Positions 6,001 to 30,231 of a stretch of DNA of 64,000 nt are shown here, one piece after another. Below the pieces are notes generated by a model. The model saw nothing but the letters and a program-made list of their open reading frames with translations, was not told where the DNA came from and did not search any database. A program made the translations under genes and the position numbers. Each line of letters begins with the position of its first letter. Position 1 is the stretch's first letter. Source of the DNA: Clostridia bacterium (lineage in GTDB: Bacteria > Bacillota > Clostridia > Christensenellales > UBA1242); assembly GCA_045654505.1 (NCBI GenBank), contig JAZONM010000005.1:162183-226182 (forward strand), given 5' to 3'.

Positions 6001-9000
6001 TTGGTAGTAATAACGAATTCTTGTATGATACTTCACAAACACTTGGTAAAAATAGTCATATTACAGGAACTCTACATAATGACAATACCGAAACCACTGA
6101 TTCTGATGGTGGTAATATTATCAATATTCAAGCAGATATCGAGATTCAAAAGGGATATGTATATGCTTCGTACATTACATACAATAAAAAGATTGAATAT
6201 ATCTATAATTCGGTTGTAAATTATGATAAGGCTATAGATATTGTGAATTCAACTGGTGATGTAGGCTGGTCTAATGCTTTACAAACTCTAATCATAGCTA
6301 AAACCGAACAATATATTTATAATTTCTCATCTATGGGCAGTAGTATATTTGATTTAACTTTTGACGAAAGTAAGTATGTAGATAAATTTATGAATACTGC
6401 GTTTGGTACTTCACTAGGAAATGCAGCCGATGTATCAAAATATTGGACTATGATTGCGGATAGTAATTCTGGTCGTCTTGTGCATTCATGGATGTATAAA
6501 GATAAGTATTTTGACACTATACTTGATAATGAGTATAGATATTATGAATATGATGAAGCAAATATAGATGATTTTAGTATTGACTCTATAGATGACCTTG
6601 TCTTATTTAAAGAAAAAGTAAATGCAGGTGAGTTTAGCGGAAATATCCAATTAAACACCGATATTGATCTTGGTGCAAAACTTTGGATGCCAATCGGAAC
6701 TGAAACCAATCCATTTACTGGCACATTTGATGGCAGTGGTCATACAATATCCAATATGCGTGTGATGGGAAATACATACAATGGTCTATTTGGCGTGACT
6801 AAAGATGCAACAATCAAAAATCTACGTATTAAGGACGCACAAGTAGCAGGGTATGGAAATTTGAGTCGAAGTGCAGTACTTATTGGTCAATCCATAGACA
6901 GAATTTCACTTGAAAAAGTAGGTGTGGAAGACGCACATATAGCCGGCAACAATATTGCTGGACTTATAGGTTCTTTGAATAGAAGTGAAGATGAAATAAT
7001 TCCACAAGTTTCTTTCCAACATGTATATGCTGTCGTTGCGGAAGGCGAATCGAGCATGGAAAACCAATATGCAATGCTTGTAGGAGACACTATTGATGCA
7101 ACAATTGATCCAGGTATTGAGATGGGTGAGGTGTATGCTGCAGAGATTAGAGTTGGTAAGGGCAACTCAACCTATGAAATAAATGAATATAGTAGCTACT
7201 TTTTGAGCACGAAGACTATTGACATGGTGAGCAATAATTCGATATATCTATTGACTAGAAATAGTGGACACTTAACAAAAGCAGTTAAAAAATCCAAATA
7301 TGAGATGCAGACCGAAATGCTGGAAGGCTTTAGTTGGTCTGAAGTATGGGTAAGAGAAAGTACCAAAAACTACGGTCTTCCTACTCTAAAATTTGAGATT
7401 GGTTATTGGATTGATGAAGGTAAAATATTGTCTGAGCTTGAAGAAGGTGAAATTTACAAAGGCATGTATGACGGAGCGGAGGTAGAATTGATAGCCCCTT
7501 CGTATGATACAGATACTAAAACATATACGATAATATATCCACATCATCTTGCGTGGGTAGCATATCAAGTAAATGAACTTAGCAAAAACTTTGAAGGCGA
7601 ACGCATTTTGATTACCCAAGCACTTGATCTATCGAGCATGATCTGGTCGCCAATAGGCACTGAAGAGGTACCATTTAAGGGTACGGTGTCAAGTGAATAC
7701 ATGGAAGACACAAAATCCACTCTTAAAATCTCAAATATGACTACATATGGTAATTATATGACTACATTTACAGAAGTGGAAGATTTAAATACTGGTTTTG
7801 TATTTGAAAGTCGTGATGTAAATACTACATATGGTGGTCTATTTGGTAATTTTGAAGGCACGCTAGAAAGCAATCAAATAAAATTTGACAATGCTGTGGT
7901 ACACAATACTGAGTATGCCGGAGTATTGGCGGGTAATATTAGCACAACAAGAGAATCATTGCCTATCACCACATTACAAAGTATTGATATAAAAGGTCAT
8001 GCAAATGTCGGTGGCCTTGTGGGTATGATGGTACAAACAGACGGTAGTAAGATAACAAAAATAACATGCAATGTGATAGATGCAGTAATTGCAGTATACA
8101 CTGCTACTAATGAAGAGCATGGACTATATGTCGGAGGTGTAGTCGGACACGGCACTAGAGTAAAAATACAAAATTCTACAGTACTAAATGCAAGTATTTC
8201 TGCAAAGGTAGACGAAAATGTAGATTATGAAAATGGTATTTTTGCAGGCGGTATTGCAGGATATGTAGATAGTAGCAAGATATTCAATTGCCAATTTGGT
8301 GACGATGCGGCTAGTAGTTATGGTTATGCCACATTGACATCCAATGGCAGTGCTGGCGGTATTGTCGCGGAAATGAAAGATACCGAATTATACGCATGTC
8401 TATCTTTCGGCCGCGTATATGGTAGACAATATGTCGGAGGCATAGTCGGACATATGACTGGAAGCAAGTCAATCGTTCAGAACGTGACAATGCAAGGTGA
8501 AATAGATTCGGATTATCACGAGGATGTGGACACATATACTGGCGGAATTGTCGGATATATGGAAAATGGATACTTGTCAGAGGCTGTATTTATTGGAAGC
8601 CTTCCTTCAGTAGCTGACAATTATATTTATGCTCACGAACTTGGTGGTGTAGTGGGTTATCATAAAGCCGGAAATATTGTAAACATATACAGCGACGTAC
8701 TTGATTTTTCTACGAAATCATATACATACTCCAATATATATGGTTATTTAGTGGGAAAAACAGACGCAATAGGTTCGATTTCTATGGCGGTACTTCAATG
8801 TGACAATAATTGTGCTTTTAATCTTTTAGGACAATGGAGTTGTAAATATACAGGTCTAATTGGAAACAAAGTCGGTGCTGAATATTCGCTTACCAAGCTT
8901 GCAAGTACAATTACTACATCATGCAGGATACATAATCTACATGATAATGATAGAAATTTTGTAGATTACTCTGATGGATATAAGGCATATTTGTATTCAT

Positions 9001-12266: not shown

Positions 12267-15200
12267 GTGATAGATATGCTAAATATGCAAAATATCAAAA
12301 AAGTGAAGTACGGCAATAATGTAAGGTACAATTTTAGCAAAACCAAAGAAGTTTTGGAAATCCCATACATGCTTGAAGTACAAAAAGATTCTTACTATAA
12401 ATTTTTGAAGGAGGGCATTGGGGAAGCGCTTTACGAATTTTCGCCTATTACCGATTATGCGGGAAAGGCAGAAGTTCATTTCCTAGACTACCATCTTGAT
12501 GACAAACCAAAACTTAGCAAGGCTGAGACCAAACGTAAAGGTGCAAATTACACAATTGCACTTAAAGGAAAGGTGCGTCTTGTAATTAAGGAAACAGGCG
12601 AAGTAATTGAGAGTGAAGTATTCTTGGGTGACGTTCCTTTCATGACAGAAGAAGGTACTTTTATCTTCAATGGTATTGAGAGAGTTGTTGTAAGCCAAAT
12701 TGTAAAAAGTCCAAGCGTATACTACAGCAAGACCGTCGATAAGACTGGCCGCGAACTTTTTGCATCCACTCTTAGTCCAAAACGTGGTAGCTGGCTAGAA
12801 ATCGAGCAAAAAGAGAAAGATCCAAATTTCTTACGTGTAGCACTAGACAAGGGGGGAAAAATTTCTCTTGGTATTTTCTTAAAATGTTTTGGCCTTACTC
12901 GTGAACAAATTTTGGAGGCACTTGGCGATAATGAAATCATGAAAGCGACTCTTGACCATGATGGTTTTGAGACCCAACATGATGCTTTGCTTGAGCTTAG
13001 CCGTAAGACTCGTCCAAGCGAAATTCCAAATGCTGAGGCGACAAAACAATTTATATTCTCACAATTTTTCTCCACACAATACTACAATCTTGGAGAAGTA
13101 GGCAGATACAAAATCGACAAAAAACTTGGTTTTTACAATCGTCTAATCGGTCTTACTGCTGCTGAAGATATCGTAAATAAGAAAAACGTTCTTGTAAAAG
13201 AGGGCGAGGTTATATCTAAAGAAAAAGCACTTGAAATCCAAAGCTCTGGCATCAATGGAGTATGGGTGTATGGCGCTAATGGCAAAAAACACAAAATGTA
13301 CGGTAATAATCGTGTTGTGCTTTCTGAAGTTATTAAATGCAATGAAAAAGAACTTGGAATCAATCACAGCGTATACTATCCAGTGCTTGCTGAGATTTTG
13401 AAAGAGTACAAAACAAAAGAAGAAAGAATTGAGGCTATTAAAAATAATGTTGACAAACTTGTAGGTAGTACGCTTACAATTGATGACATTTTGGCGACTG
13501 TATCATATTTCCTTGACCTTAATGCAGGTATTGGTTATGTAGACAATGTCGATCACCTTTGTAATAGAAGAATCAAAGGTGCCGGTGAGCTATTGCAAGA
13601 TGCGTTCCGTAGCGGTCTTAGCAAATTAAGCAATGCCGTAAAAGAAACTCTTCAATCACACGATCTAAATGAAATCACCCCTGCTCAAGTAGTAAATGCT
13701 CGTCCTATCAATCGTGCATTTAAAGACTTCTTGGCAGGTCACCAATTGTCCCAACTTATGGACGAAATGAATCCGCTTTCATCTCTTGCACAAAAACGTC
13801 GTATTAGTGCGGTAGGTCCAGGCGGTATCAAGAAAGACCGCGCTACTGACGAGGTCAGAGATATTCACCACAGTCACTATGGCCGTATATGTGTTATTGA
13901 GACTCCAGAAGGTGGCAATATCGGTCTTATCAACTCCCTTTCAGGTTATGCACGTGTTGACGAATATGGATTTATCCAAACAGCATATCGTGTAATAAAC
14001 AAGGAGAAGGGTATCGTAACCACTGATGTAGTTTATTTAATGGCGGACGAGGACGAAAACTGTTATATTGCACAAGCGACTGAGCCTCTAAATGCCGATG
14101 GAAGTTTTAAAAACGACCGTATTACATGTCGTTATATGGATACAATCGTCGAAGTATCAAAAGATATGGTTGATTATATGGACGTAGCTCCAAGCCAACT
14201 TATTTCTGTTCCTACTTCACTTATTCCATTCCTTGAAAACGACGATACAGCACGTGCTCTGATGGGTGCCAACATGCAACGCCAAGCTGTGCCTCTAATC
14301 AAAACAGAAGCTCCACTTGTAGGTACAGGTGTTGAGCACCGTATTGCAAAAGACAATGGCGCGATTATTTGTGCTAAAAATGCTGGTACTGTAAAATTTG
14401 CTGACGGAAATCGTATTGAAGTATTGACTGACGACGGCAATGTAGATGAGTACGAACTTATTAAATTTAAAAAGACCAACCAAGACTCTTGTGTAAACCA
14501 AAAGACAATTGTAAAAGTAGGTCAAAAAGTTAAGAAAGGCGAGACCTTGGCAGATGGTTATAGCACCAATGGCGGTGAGCTTGCTCTTGGTAAAAATATG
14601 CTTATCGCATTCATGAACTGGGAAGGTTATAACTACGAGGACGCGATTCTTCTATCCGAGCGACTTGTAAAAGAAGACGTATACACATCTATATCTCTAA
14701 AAGAAGAAGAAGTAAAATGTCGTAGCACAAAATTGGGTGACGAAGAGTTTACTCGCGACATACCAAATCTTGGCGAAGATGTTTTGAAGAATTTGGACGA
14801 AAACGGTATTATCCGCGTAGGTGCTGAGGTAAAACCTGGCGATATCCTAGTAGGTAAAGTTACACCAAAGGGTGAGACCGAGCCTACACCTGAAGAAAGA
14901 CTACTTAGAGCTATCTTTGGTGAGAAAGCTCGTGACGTAAAAGATACATCACTTAGAGTTCCGCACGGAATTAGTGGTGTAGTAGTAGACGTACAAGTAT
15001 TCTCTCGTAAAAACAAAGACGAACTTGAGACTGGCGTAAATCAAATGGTAAAAGTAACCATTGCTCAAAGACGTAAAATCAGCGTCGGCGACAAGATGGC
15101 AGGACGTCACGGAAATAAAGGTATTGTATCACGCATACTACCTGAGGCAGATATGCCATTTATGGCTAATGGCCAACCTATCGATATCGTGCTAAACCCA

Positions 15201-15980
15201 CTTGGTATACCTAGCCGTATGAACGTTGGACAAGTACTAGAAGTTCATTTAGGATTGGTTGCTAAAGCTCTTGGTATTAAGATTGCAACACCAGTATTTG
15301 ATGGTGTAAAAGAGACTGACATTCAAGAACTTCTTTCCCAAAATGGATTCCCTGAGAATGGAAAAATCCAACTTTACGATGGCCGTACTGGTGAGCCTTT
15401 TGAAAATCCAGTTACTGTCGGATATATGTACTATATCAAACTTGAACACATGGTTAATGATAAGATGCACGCGCGTTCGACAGGTCCTTACGCATATGTT
15501 ACCCAACAACCTCTTGGTGGTAAAGCAATGTTTGGTGGCCAAAGATTTGGTGAAATGGAGGTTTGGGCACTAGAGGCGTATGGTGCAAGTAAATTATTGC
15601 AAGAAATGATGACTGTAAAATCAGATGATGTAGAAGGTCGTCTTGCTACTTACAAAGCAATTGTCGAGGGTACACAATTGCCACAACCAAGCATTCCTGA
15701 GTCCTTTAAAGTACTTATTAAGGAATTGCAAGGTCTAGGTCTAGACATTAGACTGCTTACTAAAAATAATCAAGAATTTAATTTGAGTGACCTTAATAAT
15801 GATATGGTCGAGACTTTCGCAAATGTAACAAAAGGCAGAGAGAAAGTAGATGACTTGGCACTTGAATTTGAAGATGATAAAAATGTCGAAGAAGATTACG
15901 AAAGTAATGAAGACTTTGACGGAATATTTGATGAATCTGCGCTATTTGATGATTTTGACGATAGCGACATGGAAGAGTAG
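12267..15980 (+). CDS. rpoB: DNA-directed RNA polymerase subunit beta
   Basis: Full-length beta subunit with conserved blocks such as GRHGNKGIVSRILP and MNVGQVLE. AAGGAG lies at 12257-12262. The start could be GTG 12267 or ATG 12276/12285. The C-terminus carries an acidic tail (..DFDGIFDESALFDDFDDSDMEE). Confidence 0.97.
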   Translation: MIDMLNMQNIKKVKYGNNVRYNFSKTKEVLEIPYMLEVQKDSYYKFLKEGIGEALYEFSPITDYAGKAEVHFLDYHLDDKPKLSKAETKRKGANYTIALKGKVRLVIKETGEVIESEVFLGDVPFMTEEGTFIFNGIERVVVSQIVKSPSVYYSKTVDKTGRELFASTLSPKRGSWLEIEQKEKDPNFLRVALDKGGKISLGIFLKCFGLTREQILEALGDNEIMKATLDHDGFETQHDALLELSRKTRPSEIPNAEATKQFIFSQFFSTQYYNLGEVGRYKIDKKLGFYNRLIGLTAAEDIVNKKNVLVKEGEVISKEKALEIQSSGINGVWVYGANGKKHKMYGNNRVVLSEVIKCNEKELGINHSVYYPVLAEILKEYKTKEERIEAIKNNVDKLVGSTLTIDDILATVSYFLDLNAGIGYVDNVDHLCNRRIKGAGELLQDAFRSGLSKLSNAVKETLQSHDLNEITPAQVVNARPINRAFKDFLAGHQLSQLMDEMNPLSSLAQKRRISAVGPGGIKKDRATDEVRDIHHSHYGRICVIETPEGGNIGLINSLSGYARVDEYGFIQTAYRVINKEKGIVTTDVVYLMADEDENCYIAQATEPLNADGSFKNDRITCRYMDTIVEVSKDMVDYMDVAPSQLISVPTSLIPFLENDDTARALMGANMQRQAVPLIKTEAPLVGTGVEHRIAKDNGAIICAKNAGTVKFADGNRIEVLTDDGNVDEYELIKFKKTNQDSCVNQKTIVKVGQKVKKGETLADGYSTNGGELALGKNMLIAFMNWEGYNYEDAILLSERLVKEDVYTSISLKEEEVKCRSTKLGDEEFTRDIPNLGEDVLKNLDENGIIRVGAEVKPGDILVGKVTPKGETEPTPEERLLRAIFGEKARDVKDTSLRVPHGISGVVVDVQVFSRKNKDELETGVNQMVKVTIAQRRKISVGDKMAGRHGNKGIVSRILPEADMPFMANGQPIDIVLNPLGIPSRMNVGQVLEVHLGLVAKALGIKIATPVFDGVKETDIQELLSQNGFPENGKIQLYDGRTGEPFENPVTVGYMYYIKLEHMVNDKMHARSTGPYAYVTQQPLGGKAMFGGQRFGEMEVWALEAYGASKLLQEMMTVKSDDVEGRLATYKAIVEGTQLPQPSIPESFKVLIKELQGLGLDIRLLTKNNQEFNLSDLNNDMVETFANVTKGREKVDDLALEFEDDKNVEEDYESNEDFDGIFDESALFDDFDDSDMEE

Positions 15981-15992
15981 GAGGTAAAAAAG

Positions 15993-18900
15993 ATGTTTGA
16001 ATTAAATAACTTAGATTCAATTCGTATCGGAATTGCCTCTCCTGAGAAGATAAGAGAGTGGAGTTATGGTGAGGTTACTAAATCCGAAACTATCAATTAC
16101 CGTACTCATAAGCCAGAGATTGGTGGACTTCTTTGCGAAAGAATTTTCGGACCAAAGAAAAACTGGGAATGTCATTGTGGCAAATACAAACGTATTCGCC
16201 ACAAAGGCGTTATTTGTGACAAATGTGGAGTAGAGGTTACTAAATCAAGCGTTAGACGTGAGAGAATGGGACATATCGAATTGGCTACACCTGTAGCACA
16301 CATTTGGTTTATGCAAAGTGTACCAAGCAGAATCGGAACACTTATCAATCTTAATGCAAAACAACTTGAAAAAGTCGTATACTACGTAAGTTATGTAGTA
16401 ATCAATCCTGCAAATTCTGGGTTTCAAAAATACCAAGTTATTACAGATGCTGAGTATCGTGAAACTATGGAAAAATACGGAGATCAAGGCTTTAAAGCAG
16501 GTATGGGTGGAGAAGCTGTAAAAGAGCTTCTTGCTGAAATCGATGTAGAAAAAGAAAGTCAAGAATTGAAGGCGCAATGCGAAAAAGCAAAAGGTCAAAA
16601 GAAAGTAAAACTTACAAAACGTCTTGAGATTTTGGAAAGCCTTCGTCGCAGTGGTAATCGTCCTGAGTGGATGGTTATGGACGTAATTCCAGTTACACCA
16701 CCTGATACTCGTCCTATGATTCAATTGGACGGTGGTCGTTTTGCTACAAGCGACATCAATGACCTATATCGTCGTATCATAAATAGAAACAATCGTCTTA
16801 AAAAATTCATTTCTATCGGTGCTCCAGAAGTTATTGTTAGAAATGAAAAGAGAATGCTTCAAGAAGCAGTAGACGCTTTGATTGAAAACGGTAAACGTGG
16901 AAAAGCTGTTCAAGGACCAAAACAACGTGAATTGAAGAGTCTTACTGCAAGTCTTAAGGGAAAACCTGGACGTTTCCGTCAAAACCTACTTGGAAAACGT
17001 GTTGACTATTCAGGTCGTTCGGTTATTGTCGTAGGACCAGAACTAAAAATGTATCAATGCGGACTTCCTAAAGAAATGGCTCTAGAACTATTTAAGCCAT
17101 TCATTATGCACAAACTTGTTGAGAGAAATCTTTCTCTAAACTTCAAAGCAGCAAAACGTATGATTGACAGTCACAAACCTGTTGTTTGGGATATCTTGGA
17201 AGAGATTATTGTCGATCACCCTGTTATGCTAAACCGTGCGCCATCTCTACACAGACTATCAATCCAAGCATTTGAACCAGTATTGGTAGAGGGTAGAGCG
17301 ATAAAACTTCACCCACTTGTTTGTGGTGGCTTTAATGCGGACTTCGACGGTGACCAAATGTCTGTCCATGTTCCACTTAGCCCAGAAGCAATCGCAGAGG
17401 CACGCGTGCTTATGCTTTCTTCAAACAATATTTTAAAACCAGCTGATGGTTATCCTATCTGTACTCCTACACAAGATATGGTACTTGGTAGTTATTATTT
17501 GACCTATGTCAAAGAAGATGCTAAGGGTGCAGGAAAACACTTTAAAGACGAAGACGAAGCTATCATGGCTTATAAATCAGGTGTTGTTGAGATTCAATCA
17601 CCTATTTATGTAAGACGTCAAGTAGAGTTTGATGGAAAATTGGTAGTTAAAAATGTTCCTACTACTGTAGGTAAAATCATATTCAACTCCAATATCCCTC
17701 AAAACATGGGTTTTGTAGACAGATTGGATGAAAAAACTGTATGTGATTATGAAATTGACTTCCTTGTTACTAAGAAAAAACTTGACGTTATTATCAGATA
17801 CTGCTTTAATGCGCTTGGCACAACAGAAACTGTAAAAATGCTAGACCATATCAAAGAGATGGGTTATAAGTATTCTACAATCGGTGCTATCACAATCAAT
17901 GTGTTTGATATGGAGATTCCAGAAGTTAAGAAAACAATTGTAGCTGATGTTGAGGCACAAGTACTTGAAAATGAAAAATATTTCCGTCGTGGATTTATTA
18001 CAGAAAATGAAAAACTTGACCGTAATATCAAGCTTTGGAAAGATGCTACAAAACAACTTGAGGGTGTGGTATTAAAACAAATGAATCCTCTAAATCCAGT
18101 GCGTATGATGGCTGAGTCTGGTGCGCGTGGTAACGTAGGACAAGTATTGCAGCTTTGCGGTATGCGTGGACTTATGAGTAATACATCTGGTCGTAAAGTT
18201 GATATTCCAGTTAAGAGTAACTTCCGTACTGGTCTTACACCTCTTGAGTACTTCATTTCTTCTCGTGGTGGACGTAAAGGTCTTGCCGATAAGGTATTGA
18301 AGACTGCTGACTCGGGTTATCTTACTCGTCGTCTTGAAGCAGTAGCTCAAGAAGTAATCGTAGTAGAAGAAGATTGTTTCAAAAACAACAATGAAAAAGT
18401 AAAAGGCCTTGTTGTTACAGCAATAGTAAAAGAGGGTACACCTGTTTGCTCGCTAAAACAACGTATTATTGGTCGTTTTACAGTAAAAGATGTGCTTGAT
18501 CCTAAGACTAAGAAAGTAATTATTCCTGCGGACACAATGGTGACTGCTGATATGGCTGACGCTGTGGAAAAAGCAGGTGTAACAGCTGTTGAGATTCGTA
18601 CAGGTCTTACTTGTAGAAGCAAACATGGTATCTGTGCTAAATGTTATGGTAAGAATATGAGTGGAAACTCTATTGTTCCTATGGGTGAAGCAGTAGGTAT
18701 CATTGCTGCTCAATCTATTGGTGAGCCAGGTACTCAGTTGACAATGCGTACATTCCACACTGGTGGTGTTGCGAATGCTGCCGATATTACACAAGGTCTT
18801 CCTCGTGTTGCGGAAATATTCGAAGCTCGTAGACCAAAGGGTGTTGCGACAGTATCCGAAGTTGCGGGTAAGGTCCAACTTAAAGAGATGCAATCTCAAA

Positions 18901-19598
18901 GCAAAGATGGTGGTAAATACTACGAAGTATTTGTTAAAAATCCAGAAGGCGATGGCCACTACATTATCCCTTACGGTGTCCAACTTAAAGTTAAGAATGG
19001 TGACATGGTAGAAGCTGGTAGTGTATTGACTGAGGGTAGTATTTATCCTAGCGACATCTTGCGTACTCGCGGTATTAGAGATGTTCAGAATTACCTACTA
19101 CAAGAGGTGTTGGCTACTTACTCTTCACAAGGTGTTGAGTTGAATACAAAACACGTTGAGATTATTATTCGTCAAATGCTTAGAAATGTAAGAATTGAGG
19201 ATAGTGGTAGTACAAATCTTCTTATGGGTGAAATTGTTGACCACAATACTTATGAAGAAGAAAATGAAAGAGTGTTGCAAGAGGGTGGAGTTCCGGCTAC
19301 TGCAAAACGTATCGTACAAGGTATAACAAAAGCAGCCCTATCCAATCCAAGTTTCCTTGCTGCAGCTGCATTCCAAGAGACTTCAAGAGTATTGACTGAT
19401 GCTGCTATTAAGGGTAAAGTAGACCGCTTAGTAGGTTTGAAAGAAAACTTGATGATTGGTAAACAAATCCCTGCTGGTACTGGTTATCACAATATCAAAA
19501 ACATCACTCCAGTAGACATTGATGAAATCAAAGAAAATGATTTGACTATGGATGAATCCACTGCAAAACTTTTTGATGACGAGTCAGATGTAATTTAA
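15993..19598 (+). CDS. rpoC: DNA-directed RNA polymerase subunit beta'
   Basis: Contains the NADFDGDQM catalytic motif and an N-terminal zinc-binding CxC..CxxC. AGGAGG SD lies 12 nt after the rpoB stop. Confidence 0.98.
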
Positions 19599-19641
19599 TA
19601 ATGATATTTAAGACTTTTATTAGGATATAAATATTAGCAAA

Positions 19642-19676
19642 GGAAAAGGGCAGTAAATGTCCTTTTTCTTTTTTTA
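19642..19676 (+). terminator. Rho-independent terminator after rpoC
   Basis: Imperfect stem ggaaaagggca / tgtcctttttc (includes G-U pairs) followed by a T-run. Confidence 0.6.
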
Positions 19677-19831
19677 TGTTGGGGATTGGTAAGATATAAT
19701 TTCTAAGAAATAGTGTCTTAATAGTGCAATAAAAAAGTCCAAAAATATTATTGAATATTTGAAATAGTTATGATTAAATAACCGCTTTTTAAAGGGATAA
19801 AATAAATATCAAAAAAATTTAAATTTGGGTA

Positions 19832-19860
19832 TTTACAAATGGCAAAATGTGTTGTATAAT
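19832..19860 (+). promoter_or_regulatory. Promoter of orphan gene A
   Basis: TTTACA(AA) at 19832-19837, exactly 17 nt, TATAAT at 19855-19860. Confidence 0.6.
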
Positions 19861-19885
19861 AGGTCAAAGTTAAGTGAGGTGTTTT

Positions 19886-20590
19886 ATGAAAAACGTAAAG
19901 AACGTAAAAAATGAAGGACTAAAACTTAGAGAGTTTGAAATACTACTTCGTATGATTGCTGGTGGTAAATTGGAAGAGCCGTTTGTAGACAATAGTATAC
20001 TTATACTTCCTTCAGATGAAAAAGGAAACATAACAGGTCTTCCATGGTCTGTTTCAGAATTAAAACGCTACAATGCTATAATATTAAACGATTCTCATGT
20101 TAGAAATATTAATATTCTAGAAGATATAATTAGCAAAAATGAAAAAGACGCCATAACAAAAGCAAAAAAACTATATATGAATGGTAAATATGAAGATCTT
20201 TGGAGATTACTTGTAGGTAGAATTGAGTATCAAAATAATCGAATCAAAGGTATATTTAAGGGTGTTGTGAAAAAAGAGCACAAACAAACTTATATAAATT
20301 ATAATAATTTTAAATGGTGTGAAGAACAAGCAAAGAAAACAGGAAATAGATTAGGACACAAAACCAATATTACAATCCTTTCAATGCTCGACGTTTCGGA
20401 AACATGCTTGCTTTTGGCTAAAGAAGCAAATATTGTATTGACTGAAGAAAAAAAATACGACAATTATTCTAGGAATCAAAACAGGTCTAGTGGAAAAGCA
20501 GCAGCAAAAGTTATAGGTGGCGCAAAGAAAGGTTCAGTTGAAAGTGTGAATACTTCTGTAGTAAGAGTATCAGAAGGAAGAGAAAAATAA
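19886..20590 (+). CDS. Hypothetical protein (orphan A, 234 aa)
   Basis: ATG at 19886 follows GTGAGGTG. The listed ORF start 19874 is a GTG inside that SD. It has its own promoter and terminator. No catalytic or nucleotide-binding motif recognised. Confidence 0.7.
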   Translation: MKNVKNVKNEGLKLREFEILLRMIAGGKLEEPFVDNSILILPSDEKGNITGLPWSVSELKRYNAIILNDSHVRNINILEDIISKNEKDAITKAKKLYMNGKYEDLWRLLVGRIEYQNNRIKGIFKGVVKKEHKQTYINYNNFKWCEEQAKKTGNRLGHKTNITILSMLDVSETCLLLAKEANIVLTEEKKYDNYSRNQNRSSGKAAAKVIGGAKKGSVESVNTSVVRVSEGREK

Positions 20591-20617
20591 AAAGTAGGGG
20601 ATCCCTACTTTTTTTTG
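20591..20617 (+). terminator. Terminator of orphan A
   Basis: Stem aaagtaggg / ccctacttt with a short loop, then T7. Confidence 0.8.
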
Positions 20618-20709
20618 TGATATTATGATAGTGGTTTTGTAGGTCGTAAAAAGATAATCGATCTTAAAAAAACCCCTAAAACTTGGGGAAAAATAAATGC
20701 AAATATGTA

Positions 20710-20738
20710 TTTACAAACACTCTAAAATATGGTATAAT
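20710..20738 (+). promoter_or_regulatory. Promoter of orphan gene B
   Basis: TTTACA(AA) at 20710-20715, 17 nt, TATAAT at 20733-20738 (preceded by tgg). Confidence 0.6.
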
Positions 20739-20770
20739 AAACTTGTGAAATAAAGGAGGAATCCTAATTT

Positions 20771-21739
20771 ATGACAACAAATAGAGATTTGTATGAAAAA
20801 AGTTTAAAACGTATATATTCATTATCTACGCGTCAACTTAATATGGCGTATATTACATGGTCATATATGCTTATGGGTTATGAAATTAAAGAGGTTAATG
20901 AAGATCTTCATACTTTTACAATGATAAACAACAGCCTTAAAGGACCGGATGCTATAAGAGTGCTTAATTACAGTGCGTCAAAAACAATTAGTCTTAAAGC
21001 AAATTTAATGACACTTCAAAACGATATTGAAAAGTTTTATATAGGTGAAGTTAATAAAGGTGTAAGTGCTAGACTTCTTGGCGGTTTTGTGAGAAGAACT
21101 TCAATCAATGATGTTACGAAATATAACGATATATTAAAAGAGACTGCAAAGTGGCTTTACACATATAATAAGGCAGTTGCACATTCAAGTGAAGAAACTA
21201 TTACACAATCACTAAAAATTAGGGATGAAATGGATGACAATCTTGTAGGTAGTCGAATTCTTGATCTTATTAGTGATGTGTATAATGTAAATTCAAAACA
21301 CATGGAGACATTGCTTTCACACAATACTAAAGCGCGACCTTGCAATATTATGAAAAATTCAGATACTACATATTCATATATTTATGAAGGAGTTCCGGCT
21401 ATCATTTCTGCTAATAGTGAAGAAGAAGCGGAATATAAAATTAACCAACAATATATTTCTTCTAGCATGAAAAAGTGGGATAGACACAATAGTGTTGTTG
21501 TCTTGGATGAGGATGAAAGTTCTTTAGAAGGAGATGGTGGAATTAAGTCAGATGCTATCGGAAGTAATACTCATTTGCATGGAGAAAAAAACAATACCGA
21601 ACAAAATTTTGGATATAAAATAAAAGTTGAGCCATTCGGTCCAAGTATCAATGAAAAAAATGAAATCGTTTATGACGAAAACAGAGGACAACAATACTTT
21701 GATTTCTTCAGCAATACACATGAAAAAGGTGGGAAATAA
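20771..21739 (+). CDS. Hypothetical protein (orphan B, 322 aa)
   Basis: AAGGAGGA SD lies 8-9 nt upstream of the ATG. It has its own promoter and terminator. No recognisable motif. Confidence 0.75.
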   Translation: MTTNRDLYEKSLKRIYSLSTRQLNMAYITWSYMLMGYEIKEVNEDLHTFTMINNSLKGPDAIRVLNYSASKTISLKANLMTLQNDIEKFYIGEVNKGVSARLLGGFVRRTSINDVTKYNDILKETAKWLYTYNKAVAHSSEETITQSLKIRDEMDDNLVGSRILDLISDVYNVNSKHMETLLSHNTKARPCNIMKNSDTTYSYIYEGVPAIISANSEEEAEYKINQQYISSSMKKWDRHNSVVVLDEDESSLEGDGGIKSDAIGSNTHLHGEKNNTEQNFGYKIKVEPFGPSINEKNEIVYDENRGQQYFDFFSNTHEKGGK

Positions 21740-21741
21740 TA

Positions 21742-21769
21742 AAAAGACGAGGAATACTCGTCTTTTTTT
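21742..21769 (+). terminator. Terminator of orphan B
   Basis: Stem aagacgag, loop gaata, stem ctcgtctt, then T7. Confidence 0.85.
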
Positions 21770-21872
21770 GTTGTTTGAGTGTTGAAACTGGAAAGTGTGC
21801 TGTCAGAATTGGATTGTAATGCAGTTTTAAAAAAAAGATATGAAAAAATAGCAAAATTTTGTCATAGAAAAT

Positions 21873-21901
21873 TTTACAAAAGGTATTTTTTGTGATAAAC
21901 T
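21873..21901 (+). promoter_or_regulatory. Promoter of the HicB-like gene
   Basis: TTTACA(AA) at 21873-21878, 17 nt, TAAACT at 21896-21901 with a TGa extended -10. Confidence 0.5.
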
Positions 21902-21929
21902 ACTAAAAATAATGGGAAATGGAGAAACT

Positions 21930-22190
21930 ATGAGAGCATATGTATATCCCGCAGTTTTGTATAAAGACGAAGAAGTGGGTGGTTTTACAATTGCAATATT
22001 TGATTTGTCCTTGTTTAATGAAGGGGACACCGTAGAAGAGGCACACAAAACCATGCAAAGTATGCTTGTGTCATATGTGGAGACATGTCTAAAATACGGT
22101 ATCGAATTACCGCCTCCAAGTGATTTTAATAAAGTAATAGAGGCCAATCCTAAAAATCTATGTATTTTGGTAGAAGCTCAAGTAAAATAA
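21930..22190 (+). CDS. HicB-like (UPF0150 family) antitoxin-domain protein, stand-alone, 86 aa
   Basis: MRAYVYPAVLYKDEEVGGFTIAIFDL..GDTVEEAHKTMQ..L...G.ELPPPS matches the HicB N-terminal domain pattern as I recall it. GGAG lies 6 nt before ATG 21930; the listed ORF starts at 21912. Confidence 0.6.
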   Translation: MRAYVYPAVLYKDEEVGGFTIAIFDLSLFNEGDTVEEAHKTMQSMLVSYVETCLKYGIELPPPSDFNKVIEANPKNLCILVEAQVK

Positions 22191-22214
22191 AGACCTAAAA
22201 CATGGTCTTTTTTA
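22191..22214 (+). terminator. Terminator of the HicB-like gene
   Basis: Short stem agacc / ggtct followed by T6. Weak but correctly placed. Confidence 0.5.
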
Positions 22215-22233
22215 TTTTATAAAATATTGGGTA

Positions 22234-22262
22234 TTGACACTCAATAATTTTCATTTTATAAT
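22234..22262 (+). promoter_or_regulatory. Promoter of orphan gene D
   Basis: TTGACA at 22234-22239, 17 nt, TATAAT at 22257-22262. Confidence 0.6.
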
Positions 22263-22291
22263 AAAATTAGATAAAAAGAGGGTGGACAAAT

Positions 22292-22957
22292 ATGTTTAAA
22301 AGTAATGAGTATTGGGACTATCTTTGCAAATATACAGAAGAAGAGTTGGGGAAAATAAAATCAATTTATCAAGCAGATATTTATTCTGACAAAATTTCAC
22401 TACCTTTTTCAGTGTGGAAATTTGATAGGAAATTGGATGATATGCTTACAAATGCGACTGTTTTGATTGGTCCTGAGATTGTTGATAAGTTTACTGAAAA
22501 ATATGGTGAGTCGGTATTGAATGTGTACGAATACGGATATCTTATGAAAAAGACATTGGACTACATGACCAAAAGTCATGCAGTTGTGAAAAATGGTGAT
22601 TTAGTAGAGCCATTTTATGTGCATGCTATACGTACGCTTGGTAAGGATTTTAGGCCATTTTTAGATTCCGTAACAGAAACGAGATGCAAATATGTAGACG
22701 CAAATGGCGATATCCTTGCACAAATCATGCTAAAAAGTGATTTGCGTGCAAATAGCATTGCGCTTGATGCAATAAAAAAATATCCTGAAGGCGTATATCA
22801 TGTCAATAAAAGCGGAGAGATGCTTATCAATACTGCACTTAGAGCATTCCGCGAAAAAGATGGTGATGAAGGATATAGATTTGCAAATAAAGTGAACAAA
22901 ATTACACCAATAGTAAGAGTAAATACCCAAGGAGCAAGTAAAACAGCAGGTAAATAA
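22292..22957 (+). CDS. Hypothetical protein (orphan D, 221 aa)
   Basis: GAGGGTGG SD upstream of the ATG. It has its own promoter and terminator. No recognisable motif. Confidence 0.7.
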   Translation: MFKSNEYWDYLCKYTEEELGKIKSIYQADIYSDKISLPFSVWKFDRKLDDMLTNATVLIGPEIVDKFTEKYGESVLNVYEYGYLMKKTLDYMTKSHAVVKNGDLVEPFYVHAIRTLGKDFRPFLDSVTETRCKYVDANGDILAQIMLKSDLRANSIALDAIKKYPEGVYHVNKSGEMLINTALRAFREKDGDEGYRFANKVNKITPIVRVNTQGASKTAGK

Positions 22958-22966
22958 ATATAAAAG

Positions 22967-22988
22967 CCACAGTAGTCTGTGGTTTTTT
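22967..22988 (+). terminator. Terminator of orphan D
   Basis: Stem ccacag, loop tagt, stem ctgtgg, then T6. Confidence 0.7.
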
Positions 22989-23095
22989 GTTTTTGATGAC
23001 AAAGTGCGTTTTAAATGCTCTAATATTCGTGTATTGAATTGGGGTAGTTAATATATGAAATATATTATAATTGCGAAAATAAAAATAAAAAAACG

Positions 23096-23124
23096 TTGAC
23101 ATGGGGATTTTTATTTGATACACT
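23096..23124 (+). promoter_or_regulatory. Promoter of the rpsL-rpsG-fusA-tuf operon
   Basis: TTGACA at 23096-23101, 17 nt, TACACT at 23119-23124 with a TGa extended -10. It is followed by a ~185-nt leader with several hairpins. Confidence 0.55.
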
Positions 23125-23307
23125 ATATGGCGTATTATAGTATGGTGTTTTTTTGTGTGCAATTTTCAAAATTACGCCATTAGAAAACCTCTTTGGTGTG
23201 AAAGGAGATTTTCTAAGCCCTCGTATTATAATGTATTGTGTTAGAGGGTATTTTTGAGGAAAATATGGGTTGATGTTTTTCTCAGTAATAATTTAGGAGG
23301 GTTTAGG

Positions 23308-23679
23308 ATGCCAACAATCAATCAATTAGTAAATCAAGGCAGAAAGAAAATCGCAGTTAAATCTAATGTTCCTATTTTGGAAGAAAACCCACAAAAAAGA
23401 GGTGTTTGCCTAAGCGTAACTACCACTTCTCCTAAAAAACCAAACTCTGCTCTTCGTAAAATCGCGAGAGTTAGACTAAGCAACGGTGAAGAAGGTACTG
23501 TATACATTCCAGGCGAAGGACACAACTTGCAAGAGCACAGCGTAGTGCTTATCCGTGGTGGTAGAGTTAGAGATTTACCAGGTGTACGTTATCACATTAT
23601 CCGTGGTACTCTTGATGCTGCTGGTGTTGCTAAGAGAAAACAATCTCGTAGTAAATACGGTGCTAAAAAAGGTAAATAA
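23308..23679 (+). CDS. rpsL: 30S ribosomal protein S12
   Basis: [23 protein letters not shown] lies 8 nt upstream of ATG 23308. The listed ORF start 23254 is an upstream in-frame extension. Confidence 0.97.
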
Positions 23680-23723
23680 AAAATTTTAAAAACAAATAAT
23701 TAAATATTGAAGGAGATACAATT

Positions 23724-24194
23724 ATGCCAAGAAGAGGTGGCGTACCTAAGAGAGATGTACTTCCTGATCCACGTTATGGTGATAAAGTAGTAACAAAAGT
23801 TATCAATCAAGTAATGTTGGATGGTAAGAAGGCTATCGCTCAAAGAATAGTGTACAATGCATTTGATATTATCAAAGAAAAACTTGGTGTTGAGCCTCAC
23901 GATTACTTTACTCAAGCTCTTAATAATCTAAAACCTATGCTTGAGACTAAAGCTCGCCGTGTAGGTGGAAGCAACTATCAAGTTCCGCTAGAAGTTAGTC
24001 CTGTAAGACAACAAACTCTAGCAATACGTTGGCTAGTAAAATACGCTCGTTTGCGTAGTGAAAAAGATATGGATCAAAAACTAGCTGCAGAAATTATCGA
24101 CGCCTACAATAGTACAGGTGGCGCATATAAAAAGAAAGACGATACGCATAGAATGGCTGAAAGTAATAAGGCATTTGCGCATTATCGTTGGTAG
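23724..24194 (+). CDS. rpsG: 30S ribosomal protein S7
   Basis: [13 protein letters not shown]..; conserved S7 sequence of 156 aa. Confidence 0.97.
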
Positions 24195-27748: not shown

Positions 27749-29203
27749 ATGGACGACAAATTCACAATGCCTAAAGGGGTAGAGGTTGCGCTTGAAAAAG
27801 TTACTGCAACTGGTGCTCCAAGATTGGGCTCATACAATTCTAGAGGCGATTATGTAATCGCACCTGCTATTATTAAAGAACTTTTGAGTGTAAATAAGTA
27901 CAAAAAGACTACTTTCAAAAACTCTGTCTTTTGTACAAGTTTTTTGCCTGTCTATGGCGAACTTACATTTGAAGTTGTGTATGAGAAAAATTCTATCAAT
28001 AATTCTGCTCTCGCAACCATCTATTTGCTCGAAAATGAATATAAGGTGAATGGTTACCTGCAAAACACCATTAAGACCAAAATTGGCCACTATATTGGCG
28101 ATTTAGACGGTTTTATAGAGGAAAGTTATAAGAGATTCAACATTTCAATCTTGCCAGTAGGTGAGAGTAAAGACTATAGAGTATCTGACGACGAAAAACT
28201 TGATGGTTATATTGTCACAAAACAACAATTTAATAATCTTCTTGAAAAAGTATCGAAGGAAGAGTGTGACAAAATATATGAGGACTATTTTACAAAACGT
28301 CTAGAAATCTTAAATTCGCTTAATTCTGCATTCTCAAAGGAAGTTCTTGCGAAATTTAAAAATGAATATGCGAAGATTGAAAAGTACTTTTTAAAAGAAA
28401 AAGATTATCGCGCTCTAAGTGAGCTTCTTGATAAGTGTTTTGAGGATGTTTCGGGTACAAAATTAGAGTATAAAGAGGAAGAAGAGGAGTTTCAAAAAAA
28501 GATTTTGCCTATTCTTACTCTGTTTATTCAAGAAATGGAAAAAGCTACCGAGAAGGCATCAAATAAGGCTAAAAACCTTCTAAATAAGAAGGAAAGAGCA
28601 AAACTTGAGGATATTGTAAAACAAGAAGAGGAAGCATCTCCTTCAAAGTCTAATATTGGAGTAGATAAGTCTCCGCTTGTAGCACTACTTAAGGGTGATA
28701 TGCCTAAGGTGCTAAATCCAAGAGGCACTTCTTCAGAAAAGGGTAAAATAAGTGATGACCTTTACAATAGATTGAATAAAGCCCTTAAAGGCATTGAAGG
28801 TTTAAATAAAATTGATGACACAACTAAAAATATTCCACCTAGTACAAAAGTAGAAAAGCCAACTCATGAAAATCCAAATGGTAAAAGACTTGTTAAGGAA
28901 TTTGAAGAATATACAAATAAAGAATCCCAAAACAACAATCCTCAAACATTCATTGTCGGTGATGATAAGTCTAATAGCATTTTATTTTCTGAAAATGAAT
29001 TTAACAAAATCACACCAAATAATGAAGTGGAAAAAATCAGTAAAAGACCAGATAATACCAAACTACAAATTGAAAACGAGATAGGTGAATTATTTGGTGG
29101 ATTATCAAATGATGAAGTTGAGGTAAGGGGTGAGCCCAAAACTAGTCCAGGTCCAAGGACTCCTCAATCAAGTCATATAGATACAAATGTTAATGAAAGA
29201 TAA
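27749..29203 (+). CDS. Hypothetical protein (484 aa): globular N-terminal part, charged coiled-coil middle, low-complexity C-terminal part
   Basis: GGAGG lies 10 nt upstream. No signal peptide, TM segment or known motif recognised. The K/E-rich central region is predicted helical by eye. Confidence 0.7.
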   Translation: MDDKFTMPKGVEVALEKVTATGAPRLGSYNSRGDYVIAPAIIKELLSVNKYKKTTFKNSVFCTSFLPVYGELTFEVVYEKNSINNSALATIYLLENEYKVNGYLQNTIKTKIGHYIGDLDGFIEESYKRFNISILPVGESKDYRVSDDEKLDGYIVTKQQFNNLLEKVSKEECDKIYEDYFTKRLEILNSLNSAFSKEVLAKFKNEYAKIEKYFLKEKDYRALSELLDKCFEDVSGTKLEYKEEEEEFQKKILPILTLFIQEMEKATEKASNKAKNLLNKKERAKLEDIVKQEEEASPSKSNIGVDKSPLVALLKGDMPKVLNPRGTSSEKGKISDDLYNRLNKALKGIEGLNKIDDTTKNIPPSTKVEKPTHENPNGKRLVKEFEEYTNKESQNNNPQTFIVGDDKSNSILFSENEFNKITPNNEVEKISKRPDNTKLQIENEIGELFGGLSNDEVEVRGEPKTSPGPRTPQSSHIDTNVNER

Positions 29204-29235
29204 AAAAAGAATACGCGGAAGCGTATTCTTTTTTA
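29202..29235. terminator. Bidirectional terminator shared by the convergent orphans
   Basis: A7, stem aaagaatacgc, loop ggaa, stem gcgtattcttt, then T-run. It lies between the stop at 29203 (+) and the stop at 29233 (-). Confidence 0.85.
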
Positions 29236-30174
29236 CCAAGGCTCTTTGCCTGAATTGGAAAAACGACCTGAAGATGGTGGGTTTTTACCAGAAATTCTGT
29301 CGCAAATACTTACTTTCCCGGTATATCCCAAACTTCTTTGACTACCACCAAAGTACAAAACATCTTCTTTAGAGACTGAATTGTTTTTTATATTATTATA
29401 AAAGTTTAGGCAATCCGCTTTAAGTGCCGGTTTTCCTTTAAATGGATCTGGATTGGTCATTGCGCCAAGAACATTGTTTTTTATATCTTTCAAAACTGTT
29501 TGAAATTGTTTGTTTGAATAAGAATCTGATGGTGAGTTTTTGTCCCATGCTTTAAAATAAAGTACAGAGGCGGTGCGGTTTAGCAGCATTATATCATTGA
29601 TTTTCAAAACTTCTTGATAGAATTTGGATGACATCAGTTGTTCTTTTGTCATATTGGATTTAAGAGTGCTGTCAATCAATGGTTTGATTAGTTTTGAATT
29701 GAATGAAAATCCTTGTTTTGTGCTAGACCAAATAAAACCGCCTTGATACTCATCAAACAACCAAGCAAAATTTTCATCAAAATGTTTGCGCCAATTATTT
29801 TTTCCGGCAACTTTCATAGATGCATAAACAAACACCGAATATACATTTTTTTGACATTGTGTAATGTGAGGATGAAATTTATTTATTTCATCGACTTCAT
29901 CTTTAGTGAACTCGTGACCTCTAACATTTGAAAAATCTTGTTTTATTTTGTTCATATGTGAGTCATATGTTATATAAGAGGGTGAAAACACTTCATCGTA
30001 CATTTCTGGAAGAAAATAGTTTGGAAAACTGGCAATCAATGGGTGATTGGACTCAAGATTGTATATATCTTTTCCCCATTTAGCAGCTAAATTTTCGTTG
30101 GAATTGTCACCTTCTCTATATTTATAATAAAGAAAACGTTGACTATGCCAGAAGTCGTTTTGTGGTTTTGCCAT
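29233..30174 (-). CDS. Hypothetical protein (313 aa)
   Basis: Start MAKPQNDFW at 30174 is preceded by GAGGTGA. The listed ORF extends 14 codons further to 30216. No motif recognised. Confidence 0.7.
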   Translation of the reverse strand: MAKPQNDFWHSQRFLYYKYREGDNSNENLAAKWGKDIYNLESNHPLIASFPNYFLPEMYDEVFSPSYITYDSHMNKIKQDFSNVRGHEFTKDEVDEINKFHPHITQCQKNVYSVFVYASMKVAGKNNWRKHFDENFAWLFDEYQGGFIWSSTKQGFSFNSKLIKPLIDSTLKSNMTKEQLMSSKFYQEVLKINDIMLLNRTASVLYFKAWDKNSPSDSYSNKQFQTVLKDIKNNVLGAMTNPDPFKGKPALKADCLNFYNNIKNNSVSKEDVLYFGGSQRSLGYTGKVSICDRISGKNPPSSGRFSNSGKEPW

Positions 30175-30202
30175 AATAATCACCTCGTAATTTTCTTTAA
30201 AT

Positions 30203-30231
30203 ATTATACTATACAATTGGTTGTTTGTAAA
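30203..30231 (-). promoter_or_regulatory. Promoter of the 313-aa orphan
   Basis: On the minus strand: TTTACA(AA), 17 nt, TATAAT. On the plus strand these read tgtaaa (30226-30231) and attata (30203-30208). Confidence 0.6.

Follow-up and report, generated by a model that had tools for sequence, protein, structure and literature searches.

A lone HicB-domain gene among variable neighbours between rpoC and rpsL: a probable recombination-fed gene slot in a lineage of gut-associated Clostridia

Introduction

Between the rpoBC operon and the str operon of an uncultured, gut-associated, Christensenellales-like Clostridia bacterium, which is known from metagenome-assembled genomes, lie four intact plus-strand open reading frames (ORFs) that encode proteins of 234, 322, 86 and 221 amino acids (aa) and that are called ORF1 to ORF4 in the following. 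They are contained in a stretch of 64,000 nucleotides (nt) of contig JAZONM010000005.1, which is referred to here as the window, and coordinates given without a locus handle are counted from its first letter. A reading made from the letters alone, the sequence-only reading, had described the four ORFs as orphan cassettes, had compared them to phage morons and had proposed to examine them by remote-homology and fold searches and by a survey of the rpoC-rpsL interval in related genomes. We report the outcome of a computational analysis along these lines, which leads us to regard the interval as a probable variable gene slot around a conserved lone HicB-domain gene. Literature searches returned no work that treats the rpoC-rpsL interval or describes a lone HicB domain next to rpsL.

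Genes and predicted signals of the rpoC-rpsL interval

The interval comprises the following features, in which the promoters are scored against the 12 positions of the two consensus hexamers:

12267-15980 (+): rpoB
15993-19598 (+): rpoC
19639-19671 (+): intrinsic terminator of rpoC (rpoBC operon), 14-bp stem followed by a T-run, -18 kcal/mol, z-score -4.6; upstream boundary of the slot
19832-19860 (+): ORF1 promoter, TTTACA, 17-nt spacer, TATAAT; 11/12
19886-20590 (+): ORF1, 234 aa, read from the ATG that follows the ribosome-binding site GTGAGGTG; GTG 19874 is the start of the mechanical ORF
20589-20613 (+): ORF1 terminator, 11-bp stem followed by a T-run, z-score -2.8
20710-20738 (+): ORF2 promoter, TTTACA, 17-nt spacer, TGgTATAAT; 11/12, TG-extended
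20771-21739 (+): ORF2, 322 aa
21741-21767 (+): ORF2 terminator, 11-bp stem followed by a T-run, z-score -5.6
21873-21901 (+): ORF3 promoter, TTTACA, 17-nt spacer, TGtgaTAAACT; 9/12, TG-extended
21930-22190 (+): ORF3, 86 aa, ribosome-binding site GGAGAA; an alternative upstream ATG at 21912 would give 92 aa
22189-22210 (+): ORF3 terminator, 7-bp stem followed by a T-run, z-score -4.5
22234-22262 (+): ORF4 promoter, TTGACA, 17-nt spacer, TATAAT; 12/12
22292-22957 (+): ORF4, 221 aa
22962-22987 (+): ORF4 terminator, 11-bp stem followed by a T-run, z-score -4.6
23096-23124 (+): promoter-like site of the str operon, TTGACA, 17-nt spacer, TACACT; 10/12, TG-extended; downstream boundary of the slot
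23308-23679 (+): rpsL, heading the str operon and followed by rpsG, fusA and tuf

The four ORFs of the sequence-only reading were recovered with their lengths and with all frames intact, and the promoters with 17-nt spacing lie at exactly the four positions that it had given (19832, 20710, 21873 and 22234). Its claim of a separate terminator for each ORF holds as well, with hairpins and T-runs at 20589, 21741, 22189 and 22962. Promoter-like sites as a whole are not enriched in a consensus scan (30 versus 25±5 expected); sites that score at least 11/12 number 14 in the 64 kb on both strands versus 4.1±2.1 expected. Three of these are located within this 3.5 kb, 26-33 nt upstream of ORF starts, where about 0.1 such sites would be expected by our own scaling of the 64-kb figure. 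Hairpin/T-run sites in the region number 11 versus 2.3 expected, and the folding z-scores of the five relevant hairpins range from -2.8 to -5.6. A search of positions 19000-24000 against Rfam returned nothing but sub-threshold small RNA (sRNA) hits on two of the terminators.

The conservation of these signals was followed in alignments of the upstream and downstream regions across the window and the loci L001, L089, L091, L094 and L009. The diverged variants preserve both promoter hexamers (-35 and -10) and the ribosome-binding sites while the spacers differ, and every gene keeps a hairpin and T-run of which the loop or the whole stem changes between variants. In particular, the ORF1 promoter GGTATTTACA...TGTATAAT is retained in L001, L089, L009 and in both ORF1 copies of L091, and its hairpin persists with altered loop and stem in L089 and L091. 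The ORF2 promoter is conserved in L001, L089, L091 and L009 and the ORF2 terminator across the variants, and the ORF4 promoter TATTGACA...TATAAT is kept in L001, L089, L091 and L094 despite a different spacer, with another hairpin in place of the ORF4 terminator in L091 and L094. The ORF3 promoter has the lowest consensus score of the four (9/12), yet it has the widest comparative support, because TTTACA and a TG-extended -10 element of the TAAAAT/TAAACT type are found upstream of ORF3 homologues in most of about 49 species-level loci; a hairpin/T-run usually follows 3' of the homologue, and its sequence differs among species. These signals and their conservation support four predicted monocistronic promoter-ORF-terminator units.

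ORF1 and ORF4 encode basic proteins (isoelectric points 9.6 and 8.3), and those of ORF2 and ORF3 are acidic. The proteins of ORF1, ORF2 and ORF4 are soluble, the tail of ORF1 being Lys-rich, and in none of the four was a hydrophobic stretch of membrane-spanning length or, by pattern search, a Walker A or HExxH motif found. The GC content of the island is about 0.30 versus 0.40 in rpoBC, and the GC content at third codon positions (GC3) of ORF1 and ORF2, 0.20-0.22, lies slightly under that of other window genes. Ordinary genes of the window cover GC contents of 0.29-0.40, the window mean being 0.345; a foreign origin judged by composition was rejected, since the island (0.31-0.36) falls inside this host range.

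ORF3 is a lone HicB-domain gene fixed beside rpsL

The product of ORF3 matches the Pfam family PF15919 (HicB_lk_antitox) with 27.4-27.7 bits at a cutoff of 27 bits, covering profile positions 1-67 of 123, and the same family is matched by all 14 sampled members of the ORF3 family (best E-value 2.4e-7). A further match was obtained to phrog_497 (PHROG 497; E-value 6e-11), a family placed in the category "moron, auxiliary metabolic gene and host takeover", and the top PDB matches of the ORF3 family profile are the HicB antitoxins 9svk_B, 5yrz_A and 6g1c. That the third ORF is HicB-like, as the sequence-only reading had remarked, is borne out by both the Pfam and the PDB searches. Members of the family carry the motif YPAV...(F/P)D(L/I)...G.T.EEA...(I/L)P.P, are 86-97 aa long and end shortly past the last strand, which, compared with the 127 aa of a canonical HicB, means that they lack the ribbon-helix-helix (RHH) or helix-turn-helix (HTH) DNA-binding tail. 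As judged from its sequence, ORF3 is a lone HicB N-terminal (HicB_lk/UPF0150-type) domain, that is, the toxin-binding half of HicB. An antisense ORF of 106 aa (21827-22147, minus strand) overlaps ORF3 and is regarded as spurious; it looks "conserved" in relatives because it shadows ORF3.

The N-terminal domain is what ORF3 has in common with the HicAB system, and by the sequence evidence it fails the other features, namely an adjacent toxin, a DNA-binding domain and an operon. Canonical hicA is located directly upstream of hicB, and canonical HicB has a DNA-binding tail and is encoded in a two-gene operon, whereas ORF3 has no such tail and appears to be monocistronic. With two Pfam-verified HicA proteins as tblastn queries (PF07927, E-values 1e-13 and 1e-23), no HicA was found in the 64-kb window or in any of the Clostridia loci that bear ORF3, and in none of more than 50 loci does a hicA gene lie beside ORF3. 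The positive control was provided by six hits outside the clade (three Thermoguttaceae, one Oceanispirochaeta and two other Clostridia; L127-L132), each of which has a hicA match directly upstream; closer inspection of L127 and L131 showed that the upstream gene encodes a HicA verified by Pfam and that HicB has a length of 127 aa in both.

Wherever both genes are visible in a locus, the ORF3 family adjoins rpsL, and this holds over 45 species-level genomes. A member of the family is present in the rpoC-rpsL interval of about 27 species representatives whose rpoC C-termini are 60-100% identical to that of the window, and it is the sole gene in an interval of 1.16-1.54 kb in L023, L024, L025, L027 and L032. 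A second scan, made with the ORF3 family, returned 39 loci, which apart from the six hits outside the clade are 33 Clostridia loci (L095 to L126), 32 of them with rpsL beside ORF3. The gap between ORF3 and rpsL usually measures 345-490 nt. In six of these loci (L115, L116, L118, L119, L121 and L123) rpsL adjoins the ORF3 homologue and rpoC does not, and in three (L122, L124 and L126) the homologue is oriented opposite to rpsL. The ratio of nonsynonymous to synonymous substitution rates (dN/dS) of ORF3 is 0.02-0.07 versus about 0.03 for rpoC; purifying selection on ORF3 is thus as strong as that on rpoC. Both this selection and the place beside rpsL, which is fixed in a clade of family rank, are unusual for a mobile toxin-antitoxin gene.

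The surroundings of ORF3 vary among species

Relatives were collected by scanning 185,579 species-representative genomes with the C-terminus of rpoC, which returned only uncultured metagenome-assembled genomes labelled Clostridia or "Christensenella", the nearest at 89% identity, from the gut of human, chicken, goat, yak and deer. The same island was seen on further metagenome contigs by exact-protein look-ups, and three more diverged variants of it are represented by L089/L090, L091/L092 and L094; a scan of JGI metagenomes with ORF3 yielded no additional island variants.

In these genomes ORF3 is flanked by two gaps, the first beginning at the rpoC terminator and the second ending at the rpsL promoter, which, depending on the species, are empty or occupied by unrelated genes. 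The species group of the window has ORF1 and ORF2 upstream of ORF3 and ORF4 downstream. The nearest species (L009) shows the same upstream order, with an ORF1-like gene (261 aa, marginal similarity), an ORF2-like gene (29% identity) and ORF3 (68%), without ORF4, and ORF4 is likewise missing from the sister clade. In 16 sister species a family of 327-349 aa is encoded directly upstream of the ORF3 homologue (for example L015, 3017-4027), which is hydrophobic over a stretch of its N-terminus and invariant at many G, Y, W and D residues; the one member scanned had no Pfam match and the family profile no PDB match, and by these searches it is another uncharacterised clade-specific family. Other gap contents of sister species are families of 90-134 aa and a pyrophosphatase fragment. 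A few species carry BspA-type leucine-rich repeat (LRR) or Listeria-Bacteroides-repeat proteins of 755-1042 aa downstream of rpoC or of the ORF3 homologue. Loci with such proteins, of 755-1015 aa, are:

L010, 12098-14362: BspA-type LRR gene just downstream of rpoC or the ORF3 homologue
L028, 10345-13389: the same
L030: the same

None of the gap genes of sister species could be linked to ORF1, ORF2 or ORF4 by hhalign and iterated hidden Markov model (HMM) searches (probability below 14%). Among distant relatives, with rpoC C-termini that are 55-58% identical, those in which rpsL is within reach mostly have a gene-free gap of 145-630 bp, and in many others rpsL is not adjacent to rpoC. The survey finds ORF3 fixed in the clade, its neighbours variable and, where rpsL is within reach of rpoC, the interval of distant relatives mostly empty.

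For the description as four orphan cassettes this means that it stands for ORF1, ORF2 and ORF4 and fails for ORF3, which occurs clade-wide beside rpsL. The sequence-only reading had held the opposite outcome to be genes conserved at this position throughout the lineage with assignable housekeeping roles; ORF3 does keep its position through the lineage, and no housekeeping role could be assigned to it. In Bacillus-like Bacillota the rpoC-rpsL interval holds rplGB, a YbxF/L7Ae-family gene. ORF3 shares with it the place immediately upstream of rpsL and the small size and separate coding of the protein, and differs in its domain, which is HicB_lk; no match to L7Ae was obtained for any of the four ORFs in Pfam at an E-value of up to 1, and the more distant Christensenellales relatives have the empty 145-630 bp gap at this place. 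As a separate observation, the interval of one distant relative (L088, 10334-11224; rpoC C-terminus 56%) holds a gene for a RimK-like ATP-grasp protein (PF08443, E-value 4e-42). RimK modifies ribosomal protein S6 in E. coli.

Diverged alleles of ORF1 and ORF4 within the species

The strain of the window was compared with six other contigs of the same species, and nucleotide identity was found to be 96-100% except in two sharply bounded blocks:

19960-20560: block A, most of ORF1; 35-62% nucleotide identity versus 96-100% in the flanks
22180-22760: block B, from the ORF3 terminator through the ORF4 promoter to about codon 155 of ORF4; 63-75% versus 97-100% in the flanks

Mismatches amount to about 40% inside the blocks and to 1.8% outside, and the stretch 22946-23345 is again 99-100% identical among strains. 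Between the window and L001 the synonymous divergence (dS) is 0.035 for rpoC, 0.041 for ORF2 and 0.038 for ORF3 compared with 0.94 for ORF1 and 0.57 for ORF4, and over the comparisons ORF4 reaches 0.57-0.67 versus 0.03-0.04 for rpoC, ORF2 and ORF3, which corresponds to about 15-25 times the synonymous divergence of the flanks for the two replaced segments. Because dS is high in ORF1 and ORF4 and low in rpoC, ORF2 and ORF3, the blocks are better explained by imported old alleles than by local acceleration. In strains with 99.75% identity to the window in rpoC, the ORF1 allele shares 48% aa identity with that of the window. The breakpoints of the blocks fall inside coding sequence and not at the edges of the cassettes. 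Gain by duplication is seen in L091, in which two tandem ORF1 cassettes encode 210 aa and 220 aa (4952-6350), both copies with the GGTATTTACA promoter and a AAAGTAGGG...CCCTACTTT terminator.

ORF1, ORF2 and ORF4 are orphan genes under coding constraint

No family in Pfam, PHROGs, NCBIfam or PADLOC was matched by ORF1, ORF2 or ORF4, in agreement with the sequence-only reading, which had recognised no Walker A, HExxH, nuclease, integrase or transposase motif in these three, and at an E-value of up to 1 PADLOC-DB returned no family for any of the four proteins. PDB profile searches gave nothing for the three orphans. Their relatives are very few: the four proteins are present verbatim in the public protein collection, as is rpoC, in unnamed clusters that have 1, 4, 10 and 2 members, a word-indexed search of 5.8 billion proteins returned unnamed clusters only (4 for ORF1, 3 for ORF2 and 7 for ORF4, the last at 46-97% identity), and a HMMER profile of ORF2 run against 1.84 billion representatives retrieved 5 proteins, all from this narrow lineage.

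AlphaFold2 models were obtained for ORF2, with a mean predicted local distance difference test score (pLDDT) of 67.5, a predicted template modelling score (pTM) of 0.65, a fairly confident alpha/beta domain at residues 1-240 and disorder at residues 242-322, and for ORF4 (pLDDT 62), in which a helical N-terminal half is modelled with moderate confidence. The N-terminal helical part of the ORF4 protein is variable and its C-terminal part conserved. Foldseek at an E-value of up to 1e-3 gave no match to ORF2 in PDB or BFVD and none to ORF4 in PDB, and with that the remote-homology and fold searches together assign no family to ORF1, ORF2 or ORF4 (folds for ORF2 and ORF4). In the ORF2 model residues 20-95 (20830-21055) form an alpha-beta-beta-beta-alpha unit. 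Proteins with a double-stranded RNA-binding domain (dsRBD) account for several of the first 50 PDB hits of ORF2 and for one BFVD hit, all of these hits being non-significant (probability at most 0.38), and His 47 of ORF2, which lies in the beta-strand region, is not conserved across the family.

Signs of coding constraint are nevertheless present in all three. Values of dN/dS are 0.25-0.5 for ORF1, 0.23-0.44 for ORF2 and 0.16-0.40 for ORF4, the three genes evolve 5-20 times faster than ORF3, and their frames are open and of similar length in alleles down to 30-50% identity. ORF1, ORF2 and ORF4 are therefore real protein-coding genes under relaxed purifying selection, confined to this species group, and the absence of purifying selection, which the sequence-only reading had considered as a sign of decaying or spurious frames, is not what the dN/dS of 0.16-0.5 indicates.

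One homologue of ORF1, the 210-aa copy of L091 (30-41% identical to ORF1 alleles), exceeds the cutoff of PF09563 (RE_LlaJI) with 28.8 bits versus 23.6 (E-value 9e-7) over profile positions 190-310 of 365. The 220-aa copy has no such match, none of the other seven members of the ORF1 family, that of the window included, matches RE_LlaJI at an E-value of up to 1, and NCBIfam and a plasmid tblastn yielded nothing; the match is a lead rather than a finding as to what this family may be. A LuxR-like helix in ORF1 ("REFEILLRMIAGG") was considered and rejected, as Pfam shows no HTH match. The C-termini of ORF1 (20480-20587), ORF2 (21700-21736) and ORF4 (22890-22954) are low-complexity tails rich in Lys and Gly. 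The last two residues are G-K or G-R in most variants, and a "(V/I)VRV" motif is common to ORF1 and ORF4; a shared C-terminal tag of the orphan proteins was rejected, for the pattern is not seen outside this species group and is too faint to be interpreted.

Discussion

A variable slot around a conserved gene

We assign a probability of roughly 0.6 to the interpretation that the rpoC-rpsL interval of this lineage is a lineage-specific variable slot, fed by recombination, around a conserved lone HicB-domain gene, and in our best reading the island is neither a set of phage morons nor a recognisable defence system. In such a slot the genes would be insulated from the flanking rpoBC and str operons by their own promoters and terminators, and the two diverged segments would have been imported by homologous recombination through conserved flanks. 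ORF3 may be a module that binds or neutralises proteins in trans, much as the part of HicB does that binds the toxin, and would then not be part of a local toxin-antitoxin pair, while ORF1, ORF2 and ORF4 would be independent accessory genes and not the subunits of one machine.

Several points weigh against this interpretation. A lone HicB domain that is kept beside rpsL for so long, and under strong purifying selection, suggests a specific role, which the interpretation leaves unnamed, and a HicA or another partner could be encoded outside the 64-kb window. The division into monocistronic units is read from sequence signals and their conservation, and the view that the orphans are accessory genes independent of one another is in part argued from absence; the order ORF1-ORF2-ORF3 that is kept in L009 could reflect a functional link. 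The structure models of ORF2 and ORF4 were moreover limited by shallow alignments of 3-8 sequences.

With chromosomal hotspots and defence islands the slot shares the core flanks (rpoC and rpsL), a content that varies among species and the swapping of alleles within the species. It differs from them in being tiny (0-4 kb, 0-4 genes) and in having ORF3 fixed in its middle, and PADLOC matched none of its four proteins to known defence families; no integrase, transposase or tRNA anchor was seen. It also lacks the features of an integron or mobile gene-cassette array: among the 20 neighbouring proteins scanned there is no recombinase family, and in place of recombination sites only short repeats at chance level were found.

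Conflict, defence and toxin-antitoxin interpretations

The analysis speaks neither for nor against the suggestion in the sequence-only reading of a function in defence or in the modulation of ribosomes. Evidence at the level of patterns, namely the turnover of genes, the swapping of alleles, the antitoxin-type domain and a single marginal hit to a nuclease family, makes a function in conflict or defence, or a rewired toxin-antitoxin module, possible. The broader proposal is that of a conflict locus, acting against phages, mobile elements or competing strains, with ORF1, ORF2 and ORF4 in the role of novel effectors or sensors and ORF3 in that of a resident neutraliser or regulator, and with a diversity of the former maintained by selection that is frequency-dependent or of the arms-race type. 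A gene content that varies between conserved core genes, the deeply diverged alleles that are swapped between near-identical strains, the duplication of the ORF1 cassette in L091 and the antitoxin-type domain of ORF3 at the centre would all be expected of such a locus, to which the L091 homologue above the RE_LlaJI cutoff could be added. That match is however confined to one of the eight family members and was supported neither by NCBIfam nor by plasmid tblastn, PADLOC recognised none of the four proteins, and pattern searches for catalytic motifs, among them those of nucleases and NTPases, came back empty. Gene-wide dN/dS stays under 1 in every case, and the neighbours of ORF3 in sister species include proteins with a hydrophobic N-terminal stretch, BspA-type LRR proteins and a pyrophosphatase fragment rather than defence genes. 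We therefore consider a conflict locus unlikely, although it deserves to be taken seriously.

More specific, and in our estimation a long shot, is an undescribed modular conflict system centred on HicB, in which ORF3, as a factor specific to the clade and linked to the str operon, might bind an RNase-like or ribosome-associated partner and in which the recruited ORFs would be new partners, toxins or effectors. If such a system were real, ORF3 might affect translation or mRNA turnover and might neutralise or sense the fast-evolving ORFs.

A little more doubtful still is a toxin-antitoxin-like module that has been rewired, with ORF3 as the antitoxin and with ORF2 on its upstream side or the basic ORF4 on its downstream side as a novel toxin in place of HicA. 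ORF2 does occupy the canonical position of hicA directly upstream, as hicA does in L127-L132, and the acidic ORF3 contrasts with the basic ORF1 and ORF4. HicA has a dsRBD-like fold with a catalytic histidine, of which the alpha-beta-beta-beta-alpha unit and the recurrent dsRBD hits of the ORF2 model are reminiscent; all of these hits are non-significant, though, and His 47 varies within the family. Each gene has its own promoter and terminator, which argues against an operon, and ORF3 does not have the DNA-binding domain by which toxin-antitoxin operons are autoregulated. Furthermore, ORF3 stands alone in five species and beside unrelated neighbours in about 30 more, from which it follows that its conserved role needs no local partner.

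Phage origin and spurious frames

The architecture of promoter, ribosome-binding site, ORF and terminator as a self-contained unit between two unrelated operons is that of phage morons, and in this respect the analogy drawn by the sequence-only reading is apt; the match of ORF3 to PHROG 497 and the slightly low GC3 of ORF1 and ORF2 would also fit phage-derived morons or a decayed remnant of a prophage or mobile element. A relation to phages is where the analogy ends. The site is chromosomal and has no prophage context, no phage genes flank the island, and no phage structural, integrase or repressor genes were found at the locus; there is no tRNA gene, flanking repeats are limited to short ones at chance level, and no recombinase family was detected among the 20 neighbouring proteins scanned. 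A tblastn search of 50,697 GenBank phage records returned no match for ORF1, ORF2 or ORF4, pattern scans of IMG/VR revealed no relatives of any of the four families, and ORF2 has no fold match in BFVD. The overall GC content is inside the host range, and ORF3 has been passed on vertically together with rpsL throughout the clade. A phage or mobile-element origin is thus very improbable. That the three orphan ORFs are not genuine genes but spurious or decaying frames of an AT-rich spacer, for which the absence of known homologues or domains and the weak argument that chance long ORFs arise more easily only in AT-poor-stop contexts could be cited, is barely credible in view of frames that stay intact and of similar length in alleles down to 30-50% identity, dN/dS of 0.16-0.5, a promoter, ribosome-binding site and terminator kept for every copy, and an ORF2 model that is confident over residues 1-240.

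Other genes of the window

Outside the island the window shows further features around its core operons. Directly upstream of rpoB, where many bacteria carry rplK-rplA-rplJ-rplL, lies an ORF of 3,894 aa (168-11852, plus strand), the sole Pfam signal of which is a borderline GLUG motif (20.1 bits versus a cutoff of 20.5 bits) and which probably encodes a giant surface or adhesin-like protein. The rpoB protein ends in a long, strongly acidic tail (15850-15980; ...EDDKNVEEDYESNEDFDGIFDESALFDDFDDSDMEE). At 27749-30216 tuf is followed by an ORF of 484 aa and one of 327 aa on the opposite strand, and not by the S10 operon; for their counterparts in L001/L002 (484 and 313 aa) no Pfam hit is on record. 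Orphan genes seem to be common around the core operons of this genome.

Implications

The rpoBC-str interval belongs to the most conserved stretches of bacterial chromosomes, and in this clade it contains a small slot that gains and swaps genes around one fixed resident. Unless a function is found, current understanding is changed neither by the lone HicB domain nor by the orphan families that surround it. The former, a toxin-binding domain kept beside rpsL under strong purifying selection, offers a clean case for the role of an orphan antitoxin domain, and the families of ORF1, ORF2 and ORF4, which have almost no relatives in billions of sequences and yet show coding constraint and allele replacement, are well-defined targets for the study of orphan-gene function.

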